Source: Vulcanimicrobiales bacterium
GTDB taxonomy: Bacteria; Vulcanimicrobiota; Vulcanimicrobiia; Vulcanimicrobiales; Vulcanimicrobiaceae
DNA: 64,000 nt
Reading direction: 5' to 3'
Assembly (NCBI GenBank): GCA_038215615.1
Contig: JBBQQR010000007.1
Span: 1 to 64,000 of the forward strand
Of the stretch, positions 15,001 through 18,000 are shown one piece after another. A program made the position numbers. The first letter of the stretch is position 1. Every line of letters starts with the position of its first letter.

Positions 15001-18000
15001 ACGTCGCGAACGATGCCCCCGACTCCGGTTGCGGCGCCTTCGAACGGCACGACCTGCGAGGGGTGGTTGTGTGATTCGTGCGCGATGACCACGCCGTACC
15101 GCTCGCCGTTGTGCTCGCCTAAATGCAAGATGCCCGCATCTTCTCCCGGACCGAGCACGACGTTGGGGCCGGTCGTCGGCAACTGTTTGAGCAATTGGCG
15201 GCTGCTCTTGTAGGAGCAATGCTCGCTCCACTGCGCATCGAACGCGTACAACTCGACTGTCGTGGGCTCGCGTCCCAGACCATGAGCAATGCGGCGCAAT
15301 TCCTCGGGCCGCAAGGCCAAAGCGGGCTTAGCCAAAGTTAGGCGGCGGCGGCGCGGGCTGCATATTGAGCGCGGCGTCGGCTTGCAGCACGGCGGAACGC
15401 ATATTTGTCTGCACCATCAGCGTGCGGCCGAACATCACGGTGTCTTCCAGCCCTAGTACCTTGGCGCACTGCAGCGCAACCGCGCCCGGCTCTTTGCCGC
15501 CGGCCTCAAAAACGGGCGCGCTCGTCGTGCCCTCGATGACTGCATGCAGCGCTCCTTCAGGGCCGGAAACGGTGACGTAGACCAACCGCGCAAAACTTGC
15601 GTCGTGCTGTTGAATGAGCTGTAAAACGAAGCCCGGCGTCTTTGCCGCGCTTGCGACGTGACGCACGATCGGCAGTCCAAGCTGCCCAAGCGCTTGCGAC
15701 AGCGCGTTGACTTCGGCCGTCTGCTCGGGTTTCTCAGCGAAGATCGCTATCATGCCCGGACGCATCACCGGGAAATTTCCTGTCATCTCAGTTACTTGCT
15801 CGTAAGCGCTCTTCACATAATTGAGCGCTTCATCGTCGACCTTTTCCAAATTGCGGTAAATCTGTTTGTCGAGCATGCGGTCCTCGCGCCCGCCCGGCCA
15901 AATGCGCCACGAATCATTGTCGATCACATCGGCGATCACGAGTTGCCCCTGATTTTCACCGCTTGCCAGTCTCCCGAACTCCAGTTTCAGATCGACCAGC
16001 ATGACGTCGCGCTTGCGCCAAGCGTGCGCCAGAATCTCGAAGGTAATGCGGGCGATCTCACTCATCGCCGCAATTTCGGGCGGTTGCGCGATGTTGCGCG
16101 AAACGATTTCGTCGGGTGTAATCAGCGGGTCGTGGTTCGCGTCGTCTTTCACGAAAAACTCGAGCATGCGCGGAACGAGGATCGCGCCGCGCTGCATGCC
16201 GGGATTGCGCTTCACGAGTGAACCCGCCGCGACCCCGCGCACCACCACCTCCAGCGGGATCATGTTGCAGCGCCTGACCAGCATTTCGTTTTGATCGTCG
16301 TCTTCGCCGCCGCTCAGATAATGCGTCGGCAAACCGCAGAGATTCAGCAGACGAAAAACGCGAGCCGTTGTTTGCGCAGCCAAACGGCCTTTGCCCGCAA
16401 TTTCGTTGCGCCGCGCGCCGTCCCCGGCGCTGATCGCATCGGTTTGCTTGACGACCGCAACGTCCGGCTGCCCCGGGCTCTCATAGAGCACCTTGGTCTT
16501 GCCGTGGGCGATCTCGATGCCTTTGTTCATTCTTTTGTTGTCATCCTGAGCTGGCTGGGGAACGTATCGAGATTCTCAATGCGATCCGCTAGTGCAAGCG
16601 CGCGCGCGGGCGCGCTCCCTGTATGAGCCGAAGGTTCCAGCATGCGGCGAATCTCCGCCGGATCGAGCCGGCTCGTAAGCTCAGAACTTTCCGTTAACAA
16701 ACTCCCCAGCGGGTTTTCCTTGCCCTGCGCGACGGCCTCCCACGCTCGCATCGAGGCTGTACGCAATAGTTCGTGGGTCGCCTGACGATCGCCGCCGGCG
16801 CGCACGGCCTCGAGCAGCACCGATTCGGTGCCGGCGAACGGGCCGTACGTTCGCAAGTTATCCGCAATGCGTTTGGTTTCGATCGTAAGTCCGTTCACGA
16901 CCTTGATGGCCAGCTGCACGATTTCGTCGGTACAAAGTAGCGCCTCCGGTAAAATCGTGCGCCGGTTGGCGCTGTCGTCGAGCGTGCGTTCCAAATAATT
17001 GGTCGCTGCGTTCTGCCATGCCACGTCCGCATACGCCGGCAACAAGCGGGCAAGCGAGCCGATCCGCTCACACAAGATCGGATTTCGCTTGAACGGCATG
17101 GCGGAACTGCCGACTTGCTTTTCCGCAAACGGTTCGCGCAGTTCGCCAAACTCCGGCGAGCTCAATATCCGAATGTCGGCCGCAAATTTCGAAAGCGACG
17201 CTCCGATGCCGGCCAGGGAGCTCAGCAGCAGATAGTCGAGCTTGCGAGGATACGTCTGCGTACTGATCTCGCGCGCGCTCAAGCCAAAGCGGTCGAGCAC
17301 CGCTTTCTCCAGGGATTCCGCCGAACCGCCGCTCCCGTTGACCAGCTGCTCGTACGACGCCGCCGTGCCGACGGCGCCGCGCATGCCTTTGGCCGTGAGG
17401 TTCACGAAAGCGAAGCGCAGCATGGCATCGTCGATGAGGAGGTCTTGCGCGTAGACTGCGAAGCGATAGCCGAGCGTCGTCGGCTCGGCGGGCTGCAAGT
17501 GCGTGAACGCTATGCAAACCACGCCGGAGTTCTCGCGAATGCGCTTGGCAAATGCGCGCAACAGATCGCCGAGCGCTGCTCCAATCATCGCAGTCGCGTG
17601 CCGCAGGCGATACGTTTCGACCGTGTCTTCGATATCCATCGAAGTCGAGCCGAGGTGGATTTTTCCGCCACCGATCCTTGCCTGCGAAGCAAACACGCGG
17701 ATCTCCGCCATCAGGTCGTGATGAATTTCGCTTTCGATCTTTAGTGCCGCATCGACGTCGACATCGTCCACGTGCGCGCGAATATCTTCTACTTCTTCGG
17801 CGCTTACGATACCGTGAAGCGACTGCGCTTCGGCTAACGCCAGCCACACCTGGCGCCAAAGTCTGCGCCGTTCGTGCTCGGAAAAAAGCGCGCGCAGCTC
17901 GGCGCGCCCGTATCTCCAAGAAAACGGAGACGCGTAAGAATCGTAGGTCATGGGGTGCTGGGACGCTTCGCGCGCAGGCCGGCTAGTTCCGCGGTCAAGA

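Follow-up and report, generated by a model that had tools for sequence, protein, structure and literature searches.

The C-terminal ~150 residues of the PurC protein encoded in the window, by which we mean the whole 64,000-nucleotide stretch of DNA analysed here, are very probably a dead class II PurE (AIR carboxylase) that originated in a PAICS-type fusion. The domain is homologous to the PurE half of PAICS, its motifs have been lost in a pattern that can be followed on a phylogenetic tree, and it is under purifying selection. This class II fusion ancestry, with the fusion still intact in sister families that lack purE-purK, is new relative to an earlier note on the same DNA. The explanation that we favour overall, with a rough probability of 0.55, joins this origin to the retention of the remnant as a scaffold.

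Results

A PurC protein with a PurE-like C-terminal domain

A profile search of the genome (54 contigs, 100% complete) gave a single SAICAR_synt match, the purC gene of Table 1, and the 400-aa reading frame that the earlier note had described was recovered there. The gene overlaps the 3′ end of purB by 4 nt at its start and the listed start of purL by 8 nt at its end. As had also been stated, SAICAR_synt covers only the N-terminal part of the protein, and residues 235-400 taken alone match AIRC with 25.4 bits (E 1.2e-5); both scores were reproduced exactly. In the whole PurC the AIRC match falls to 23 bits, and both values are below the 30-bit gathering cut of Pfam. The normal PurE and PurK previously placed on contig C39 are indeed encoded there, outside the purC operon: PurE stands alone in one full copy (220.2 bits), and PurK follows directly downstream.

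Table 1. Coordinates of purC, its domains and motifs, and the neighbouring operon genes within the window
Feature	Position	Strand	Basis
purC with fused putative pseudo-PurE domain	15328..16530	minus	ATG start, 400 aa + stop; ORF list and translation
SAICAR synthetase (PurC) domain, residues 7-231	15838..16512	minus	Pfam PF01259, 201.9 bits, E 1.6e-59
Interdomain linker GNFPVMRPG, residues 251-259	15754..15780	minus	Conservation in 25 f1 rows
Putative pseudo-PurE domain, residues 259-389	15364..15756	minus	AlphaFold2 models, Foldseek, PDB sequence search
Former phosphate/ribose-binding loop, now AEKPEQ (human MGSTSD 272-277)	15721..15738	minus	Alignment and site table
SAAK, formerly SAHK; catalytic His to Ala	15640..15651	minus	Alignment and site table
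Former 70s loop, now VSGPEGAL (human VAGRSNGL 328-335)	15547..15570	minus	Alignment and site table
Junction G345/K346 of the 25-residue deletion	15493..15498	minus	Alignment with an intact relative (L034)
Conserved C-terminal helix, residues 364-389	15364..15441	minus	Conservation across f1 rows
purB (adenylosuccinate lyase)	16527..17951	minus	Upstream of purC in operon; Pfam Lyase_1 and ADSL_C
purL	13215..15335	minus	Downstream of purC; Pfam AIRS, AIRS_C, FGAR-AT linker
purQ (glutamine amidotransferase subunit)	12454..13347	minus	Pfam GATase_5

In profile searches with Pfam and NCBIfam, no family other than PurE was found in the domain; the NCBIfam purE profile scored 32.5 bits (cut-off 149.6). 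LarB was considered as an identity for the domain and rejected (NF033503, 12.8 bits, E 0.07, cut-off 175 bits); the true LarB proteins of relatives are encoded by separate genes and score 263-271 bits. When the domain was used in a sequence search of the PDB, 4ja0 was matched at E 6e-11, and the three best sequence matches were insect PAICS, human PAICS and the class II PurE of T. denticola. AlphaFold2 modelled residues 235-400 with a pLDDT of 88.3 (47-row alignment), and Foldseek placed this model closest to the PAICS structure 4ja0 (E 5.6e-9), the T. denticola class II PurE 3rg8 (rmsd 1.8) and human PAICS 2h31. Class I PurEs came after these three; 91 matches in all were found at E <= 1e-3. 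The full-length PurC model (pLDDT 91.1, pTM 0.89) superposes on human PAICS 6yb8_A with TM 0.85/0.81 over 420 columns, which bears out the PurE fold in PAICS-like order that had been proposed earlier. The modelled domain has four strands; PurE is described as a five-stranded sheet in PMC10484210.

Loss of active-site residues

The sequences compared come from the family of the window (f1), its order-mate (f2) and a sister family (f3), together with more distant relatives. The F, P, M, R, P and G of the interdomain linker do not vary among the 25 f1 rows. The catalytic His of the SAHK motif (human His303) is present in 17/17 rows of the intact type, in 0/5 rows of f2 and in 0/25 rows of f1; its absence, reported before, therefore extends to every f1 row. 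PMC9376930 reports that this His occurs without exception in the two classes of PurE and that the human, chicken, E. coli and A. aceti enzymes become inactive when it is mutated. The same source provided a list of 18 active-site residues of human AIR carboxylase. At these sites, identities to the human enzyme number 14-16 in the intact families, 9-13 in f2, 4-7 in f1 and 6 in the window protein. The old substrate loops, whose PAICS-type sequences are MGSxSD and AGRSNxL, vary freely among f1 members: where the human enzyme has D277 they carry Q, F, S or R, and where it has R331 they carry P, L, T or A.

The loss also reaches the fold. Of 26 columns that are filled in the intact relative and gapped in the window protein, 25 lie at the G345/K346 junction and one at the C-terminus; the 25-residue deletion took away a loop, a helix and the fifth strand. 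The earlier note had found an active-site segment of about 28 residues missing by comparison with the genome's own PurE; the count of 25 refers to the intact relatives. With the His gone and so few active-site residues kept, the sequence indicates that the domain is almost certainly non-catalytic, in line with what had been thought probable.

Distribution among relatives

We surveyed purE and purK in 74 genomes of f1, f2, f3 and outgroups. The fused domain was the best AIRC match in 29/30 f3 genomes (104-119 bits), and neither a class I PurE, of about 200 bits, nor a PurK over the cut-off was found in any of the 30. All five f2 genomes had a stand-alone PurE (217-225 bits) along with a fused domain of 92-106 bits, and in each a purK match adjoins purE, four being over the cut-off and the fifth split at contig ends. 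In f1, stand-alone PurE was present in 17/17 genomes (205-222 bits) and PurK in 14/17. The remaining AIRC matches are LarB, as checked in one genome each of f3, f2 and f1. An f1 genome (G045) with a 58.8-bit AIRC match in a 403-aa frame was considered as a less decayed intermediate and rejected, this match also being LarB. The PurK proteins of f1 and f2 are 56-57% identical, and the purE-purK lineage is common to the two families. In the sole outgroup genome with both systems, purK is unrelated (29% identical) and the order of the two genes is reversed.

A search of 296 other f1 genomes detected the fused domain in 277. Ten of the 19 genomes without a match belong to one genus, g24, in which purC stops exactly at the linker (7/7 inspected genomes) and which retains PurE-PurK although the fused domain is gone. 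The family-wide conservation claimed previously thus stands for most of f1, but not for this genus, where the domain was lost outright. The claim that only weak matches occur outside the family has to be abandoned: the same fusion, better preserved, is present in two sister families. The intact fusion is found in f3 and, within the same phylum, also in families that are more distantly related, and bacterial fusions occur as well in members labelled Microgenomates and Woykebacteria and in one MAG labelled Patescibacteria; databases name such proteins 'AIR carboxylase / SAICAR synthase'. A PAICS-type PurC without any fused PurE was found in genomes labelled Ktedonobacteria and Chloroflexia. At loci labelled Anaerolineae/Chloroflexota, purC and a class II purE are in frame and separated by one stop codon (12/14). 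Stop read-through was rejected for these loci, which we regard as ordinary adjacent genes, because the genomes differ in the stop (TAA, TAG or TGA) and a separate ribosome-binding site and start serve each purE. In the ESM Atlas the fusion appears only in eukaryote-dominated clusters, which reflects a limit on cluster size and not an absence from bacteria.

Probable origin and decay of the fused PurE

The f3 fusion aligns end-to-end with insect PAICS (E 1.8e-91) and human PAICS (E 4.7e-85), and its PurE half matches the T. denticola class II PurE with 118 bits. The operon position purB-purC-purL is common to the window and the intact fusions of the sister families. In a tree of PurE domains, with the genome's own PurE as the outgroup (branch 1.25), f3 is sister to (f2, f1) with a clade support of 96%; the f1 stem is long (0.82) and is followed by slow evolution within f1. 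The ancestor of the class very probably possessed a bifunctional PAICS-type PurC-PurE(II) enzyme for which PurK was unneeded, a state that survives in f3 and in the phylum's more distant families. By the time f1 and f2 diverged, a stand-alone class I purE-purK was very probably in place and had made the fused carboxylase redundant. Decay would then have begun with the loss of the His and of the loops for the substrate (f2 and f1), continued with that of the 25-residue loop, helix and strand (f1) and ended with the disappearance of the domain (g24). Parsimony, applied to few outgroup genomes, favours a gain of purE-purK over their loss in f3.

Selection and predicted self-association

The remnant is under purifying selection and is not drifting. 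Seven independent pairs (dS 0.8-1.7) gave dN/dS values of 0.03-0.18 for the domain, with upper 95% limits <= 0.28, and the median over 279 pairs was 0.185 for the domain versus 0.074 for PurC.

A prediction with four copies of the domain scored 0.64, as compared with 0.00 for the best of three controls, a score that may reflect memory of solved PurE/PAICS octamers and not how this particular protein behaves. The quaternary structure of the PurE family is an octamer of 422 symmetry. The mark for self-association is reached by 20/30 proteins solved as one-chain pairs and by 1/23 solved as single chains, counts that are only approximate for the window domain because it was run with an alignment of our own and in four copies, not two. 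Contact agreement in the four-copy runs was at least 64%, and the pLDDT of the partner at least 84. In the resulting model, the C-terminal helix (364-389) sits on the SAAKTP loop of the neighbouring copy, and a two-fold contact forms around helix 348-360. The SAxKTP loop and the C-terminal helix, which are conserved best, touch the neighbouring copy in this model. Across the f1 rows, the predicted interfaces taken together showed no higher conservation than other residues of the domain (22/53 versus 33/90 positions invariant; Mann-Whitney p 0.31), a comparison that tips the balance in neither direction.

Discussion

We propose, tentatively and at somewhat less than even odds, that the remnant has been kept as a non-catalytic structural module that has lost the binding of AIR/CAIR. 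It would pack against PurC as in PAICS and would self-associate through the old PurE contacts, namely the C-terminal helix on the SAxKTP loop of the neighbour and the two-fold at helix 348-360. PurC would be held in a PAICS-like oligomer, and its stability or activity may have come to depend on the remnant. Against this proposal, the fold has lost a strand and a helix through the 25-residue deletion, which could have changed or abolished the octamer. Moreover, PurC ends at the linker in g24, and Ktedonobacteria and Chloroflexia have a PurC without fused PurE; a scaffold is therefore not indispensable.

It seems possible, if rather unlikely, that the domain has no quaternary or partner role and is folding ballast, kept because loss or unfolding of the tail would destabilise PurC. 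The interdomain arrangement is confidently modelled (pTM 0.89), the linker is invariant, conservation is not concentrated at the predicted subunit interfaces and there is one clean loss (g24), all of which agree with ballast. However, a stop in the linker is a one-step mutation, and yet the domain is kept in nearly all f1 genomes (277/296); the contacts that its best-conserved loop and helix make with the neighbouring copy in the four-copy model also argue against ballast.

Unlikelier still is a docking function, in which the dead domain would bind the class I PurE octamer or PurK, and unstable CAIR would pass from PurE to PurC. Decay of the domain goes together with the possession of stand-alone PurE-PurK, the selection on the domain is in keeping with such a function, and for human PAICS it has been proposed that CAIR is channelled from one half to the other (PMC8988938 and PMC9376930). 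On the other hand, three protomers contribute to each PurE active site (PMC10484210), and a dead class II subunit within a class I octamer should therefore damage it. The domain is also far from the genome's own PurE, as the long outgroup branch indicates, purE-purK lie outside the purC operon, and g24 has PurE-PurK without the domain. To a broader version of this idea we give a similarly low chance: the dead PurE core might be the organising centre of a purine metabolon, in which the PurC oligomer docks class I PurE, and perhaps PurK, and CAIR is handed on unreleased. The change along the f1 stem and the 25-residue deletion would then be surface re-modelling for a new partner and not decay. 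If so, the protein would be a natural separation-of-function variant, in which the PAICS core scaffolds independently of catalysis.

A new ligand-binding or regulatory domain, by which the remnant would sense a metabolite and control PurC, is improbable. The long f1 stem with slow evolution afterwards could be read in this way, as could the conserved polar residues specific to f1 and f2 in the alignment, including QHD and QTNxRS; but the former nucleotide pocket is now lined by acidic and variable residues, no other pocket or motif was identified in the domain, and PurE is the only family that it matches in Pfam and NCBIfam. That the domain is still an enzyme, performing AIR carboxylation or a related reaction through other residues, is hardly credible: the Ser, Ala and Lys/Arg of SAHK are retained, but the universally conserved His, the mutants of which are inactive (PMC9376930), is gone together with the phosphate/ribose-binding residues and 25 residues of the fold, and the replacement residues differ between close relatives.

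We return to the reading of a dead class II PurE retained as a scaffold. One fusion exists among related bacteria in four states: active, dead at full length, dead and shortened, and deleted. Human PAICS is a cancer target, and it is still debated whether its PurE core acts only as a catalyst or also as a scaffold or channel that feeds PurC. The bacterial series offers a natural experiment on what the PurE half does besides catalysis, as purifying selection still acts strongly on the seemingly dead forms. It also offers a clean, datable replacement of a CO2-using class II AIR carboxylase by an unrelated route that yields the same product, the ATP-driven PurK with class I PurE, and shows a pseudo-enzyme domain arising inside a fusion protein. 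In annotations, 'PurC with an inactive PurE-like domain' is the name that these proteins should be given, and they should not be called bifunctional. In some sources, fragments of such PurC proteins go under the name 'NCAIR mutase'.

Comparison with known systems

No papers on purine biosynthesis or PAICS in Eremiobacterota were found in the limited literature collection that was searched, and PMC3261824 was the only paper found there in which PurCE is mentioned in connection with purine. Animal PAICS (human 2H31/6YB8, silkworm 4JA0) has the same domain order and relative placement as the window PurC. In contrast to it, the PurE half of the window protein lacks the catalytic His, 12 of the 18 active-site residues and a 25-residue segment, and the organism has a separate PurK and class I PurE for CAIR. 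Bacterial PAICS-type PurC-PurE(II) fusions are known from the sister families and from Patescibacteria, those of the sister families being direct relatives of the window PurC. The intact ones keep all motifs (His in 17/17; 14-16 of 18 sites), whereas the window protein is an inactivated, shortened form; purE(I) and purK are absent alongside the f3 fusions, and the window genome has both. The best stand-alone structural match of the remnant is the T. denticola class II PurE (3RG8/3RGG; rmsd 1.8-2.6, TM 0.73), which has SAHK and AGRSNAL-type motifs in common with the f3 domain. Unlike the window domain, which is 15-16% identical to it and has lost these motifs, the T. denticola protein is stand-alone and active. 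Finally, the PurE-PurE′ double proteins of Methanobacteria also contain an additional PurE-like domain that is poorly conserved, and PMC3261824 suggests that its role in the assembly of subunits is purely structural. In these archaeal proteins, however, the partner is PurE and not PurC, and the second domain is required for complementation.

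A degenerate PurE domain fused to PurC

The window purC has purB on one side and purL-purQ on the other, all encoded on one strand, and stops overlap with starts. The Pfam SAICAR synthetase match covers residues 7-231 (E 1.6e-59). An AIRC (PurE) match at residues 271-341 remains below the 30-bit cut-off, at 23 bits in the whole protein, and residues 235-400 alone give 25.4 bits (E 1.2e-5); NCBIfam purE scores 32.5 bits for a cut-off of 149.6. In the genome (2.21 Mb, 54 contigs, 100% complete) no second PurC was found; one ordinary PurE (220 bits) is encoded on contig C39, with PurK next after it.

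Coordinates of purC, two neighboring ORFs and LarB genes of related genomes
Feature	Position	Strand	Remarks
purC with fused PurE-like domain	15328-16530	-	single ORF, 400 aa
ORF upstream of purB, may be holA	17948-19135	-	395 aa; weak DNA_pol3_delta match, 23.7 bits
ORF downstream of purQ	11969-12436	-	155 aa; marginal PurS match at extreme end (residues 134-152), E 0.021
LarB	L155:466-1320	-	
LarB	L156:160-951	+	
LarB	L157:262-1431	+	

Residues 235-400 were modeled with AlphaFold2 from a 47-row alignment (A1) with a pLDDT of 88.3, as four parallel strands and a long C-terminal helix. The top Foldseek match of this model in the PDB was insect PAICS (4ja0, E 5.6e-9, TM 0.78), followed by the class II PurE of T. 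denticola (3rg8, rmsd 1.8-2.6) and human PAICS; class I PurEs ranked below these, among 91 matches with E <= 1e-3. A full-length model (alignment A3; pLDDT 91.1, pTM 0.89) matched the whole human PAICS chain 6yb8_A over 420 columns (E 3.1e-38, TM 0.85/0.81), and solved stand-alone PurCs matched just half of it. Thus, the window protein is predicted to be PAICS-like both in fold and in domain arrangement. The earlier note had described a fused PurE-like domain with a sub-threshold AIRC match, a PAICS-like model, no catalytic His, and PurE and PurK encoded elsewhere; that description is correct.

Intact fusions in related families

The 166-residue extension served as query against 400 further genomes of the phylum. 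Matches were frequent in the window's own family (f1), in a family of the same order (f2) and in a sister family of the same class (f3). The nearest proteins carry the source names Candidatus Baltobacteraceae or Eremiobacteraeota. The f3 proteins (423-429 aa) have 25 residues more than the window protein and show the motifs MGSxxD, SAHK, AGRSNAL and CPP. One of them matches insect PAICS (E 1.8e-91, 310 bits) and human PAICS (E 4.7e-85) from end to end, and its C-terminal half matches T. denticola class II PurE with 118 bits; the best solved stand-alone PurC reaches just 115 bits. The same three proteins, insect PAICS, human PAICS and T. denticola PurE, come first in a sequence search with the window extension. 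PurE domains were placed in a quick maximum-likelihood tree with the window genome's own class I PurE as root; f2 and f1 together are sister to f3 (clade support 96%), in agreement with the taxonomy, and the f1 stem is long (0.82 changes per site). As judged from sequence, the f2 and f3 genes are the same fusion as the window's, better preserved.

The fused domain and stand-alone PurE and PurK across families (400-genome extension search; 74-genome Pfam AIRC and NCBIfam purK search; both include some unpublished genomes)
Property	Other, more distant families	f3	f2	f1
Genomes with extension match	7, all weak	29/30, E 1e-14 to 1e-21	5/5, E about 1e-24	277/296
Stand-alone class I PurE		0/30 at ~200 bits	5/5, 217-225 bits	17/17, 205-222 bits
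PurK		0/30 over cut-off	5/5 adjoining purE; 4 over cut-off, fifth split at contig ends	14/17; three without match are draft genomes
AIRC score of fused domain		104-119 bits, top AIRC match in 29/30	92-106 bits	19.5-31.4 bits where detected
Site residues identical to human	14-16/18 (6 rows)	14-16/18 (11 rows)	9-13/18 (5 rows)	4-7/18 (25 rows)
Catalytic His	6/6	11/11	0/5 (Gln 3, Leu 1, Ser 1)	0/25 (mostly Ala, Ser, Thr)
Median dN/dS, extension		0.187 (presumably active)		0.185 (279 unsaturated pairs)
Median dN/dS, PurC domain		0.168		0.074 (279 unsaturated pairs)

The AIR carboxylase site of human PAICS comprises 18 residues (PMC9376930), the numbering of which we verified on the alignment of the one f3 protein with PAICS. 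The window protein retains 6 of the 18 and has Ala in place of the catalytic His. This His is described as universally conserved in both PurE classes, and its mutation kills the activity of the human, chicken, E. coli and A. aceti enzymes (PMC9376930).

Stand-alone purE-purK and the fate of the fused carboxylase

In the thirtieth f3 genome no fusion at all was found, and the one purK-profile match in f3 (41 bits) was unrelated. The other AIRC matches, of 40-60 bits, are not PurE but LarB (nickel-pincer cofactor synthesis), as checked in one genome each of f1, f2 and f3. LarB genes are common in f2 and f3 and occur in some f1 genomes; the window's own genome has none. The more distant families mostly have the intact fusion without PurK. 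One exception is G008 (family f11; L046, L150), which encodes an apparently intact fused class II PurE (SVHK, AGRSNGL) together with a class I PurE and PurK. Its PurK shares only 29% identity with that of the window's genome and the gene order, purK-purE, is the opposite, which points to separate acquisition; in G008 the CAIR route appears to have been doubled independently and possibly recently. No AIRC domain, fused or free, was detected in eight genomes from families f4, f5, f6, f10, f12 and f13 of the phylum, of which seven are 90-99% complete; these may be purine auxotrophs or may have a PurE too divergent for the model.

PurE and PurK are as similar between f1 and f2 as within f1 (PurK 56-57% identical), so the common ancestor of the two families already had the purE-purK pair. 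In the simplest history, an ancestor would have used a PAICS-type enzyme, the f1 and f2 ancestor would have come to have purE-purK, and the fused carboxylase, then redundant, would have died. The ATP-driven route may have been of advantage because class II enzymes need ample CO2; an archaeal survey argues for the same link of PurK with CO2 availability (PMC3261824).

In one f1 genus, g24, the whole domain is missing. In all seven genomes inspected purC ends exactly at the linker (…VAGFDSR* or …VAGFTAS*), with purL next, and the phylum search found no extension match in 10 of the 11 genomes of the genus. The eleventh, G242, has a short purC plus a full-length fused copy on another contig (L142, G242:C9; L147, G242:C86). 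This copy is broken by one TAA, is 73% identical to the window protein and is nearer to other genera; it may be a pseudogene or come from mis-binning of its contig.

The dead domain is under selection

Rates were estimated by the Nei-Gojobori method on codon alignments with our own script, counting the extension from residue 255; the family-wide medians include one unpublished locus, L014. Within the window's genus (dS 0.6-1.2), dN/dS was 0.01-0.12 for the extension and 0.004-0.03 for the PurC domain. Seven independent sister pairs gave 0.03-0.18 for the extension, with bootstrap upper limits of at most 0.28; this test, as well as A1, A3, the domain tree and the models, was done without unpublished genomes. 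At the protein level, the rate of change of the dead domain is about 2.5 times that of PurC, compared to 1.4 times in f3. We conclude that the dead domain is nowhere near neutrality and is still selected.

Constraint within f1 is uneven: variation is free in the former phosphate and 70s loops, and almost absent from the linker FPxMRPG, the RHxASAxxTP loop and the C-terminal helix. Such a pattern speaks against any use of the old nucleotide pocket and in favor of a structural role. Both PurE enzymes and the PAICS core form octamers in which three protomers build each active site (PMC10484210). We predicted a complex of four copies of residues 252-394 (18-160 of the extension) from A1. The score was 0.64 (runs 0.51, 0.64 and 0.78), and the best of three controls scored 0.00; contact agreement between runs was at least 64% and partner pLDDT at least 84. 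Of 30 proteins solved as one-chain pairs, 20 reached the pass mark, as did 1 of 23 solved as single chains; these counts apply only roughly here because our own alignment and four copies instead of two were used. Two contacts were predicted with confidence, a two-fold interface around residues 337-374 and packing of the C-terminal helix on the SAAKTP loop of another copy. As octamers of the PurE family have been solved, the pass may reflect only likeness to them, and the predicted interface residues are no more conserved than the remaining residues of the domain.

Our preferred reading, with a probability of roughly 0.45, is that the extension is a non-catalytic scaffold inherited from the PAICS core. 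That the extension serves as folding ballast is a less likely candidate. The proposal of the earlier note, docking to the class I PurE, appears improbable, and a new regulatory role more so. Residual catalysis, in a domain with its catalytic His replaced, is hardly credible.

Relation to known fusions

The intact bacterial PurC-PurE fusion is not new; sources label it 'AIR carboxylase / SAICAR synthase'. Among 1.84 billion representatives searched, many proteins of ~400-450 aa matched over the whole query, their named cluster members including animals and Microgenomates- and Woykebacteria-labeled bacteria. In a survey of one genome per species, with loci read by our own ORF check, single-ORF fusions were found in the window's phylum and in one MAG labeled Patescibacteria. 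PurC of PAICS type stands alone in Ktedonobacteria and Chloroflexia-labeled genomes, and purC and class II purE are adjacent but separate in two DPANN archaeal and 14 Anaerolineae/Chloroflexota-labeled genomes (L068, L069, L071-L073, L077-L081, L083, L084, L087, L090). In 12 of the latter 14 loci the two genes share a frame with one stop codon between them. The stop type varies, and a separate ribosome-binding site and start are present for every purE, so the pairs look like ordinary coupled genes, either a fission of the fusion or a pre-fusion state. P0211 (648 aa), in which amidophosphoribosyltransferase (PurF) domains are joined to an AIRC domain with 53% identity to the PurE domain of f3, is another fusion of purine-pathway enzymes.

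In a limited literature search, no paper was found that deals with fusions of PurC and PurE in bacteria or with how the window's phylum makes purines. What we add is mainly a graded series, in which the fused domain is active, dead, dead and shortened, and finally lost, together with its link to purE-purK and the continued selection on the dead domain. Among published cases, the methanobacterial PurE-PurE', with its degenerate second domain, comes closest (PMC3261824).
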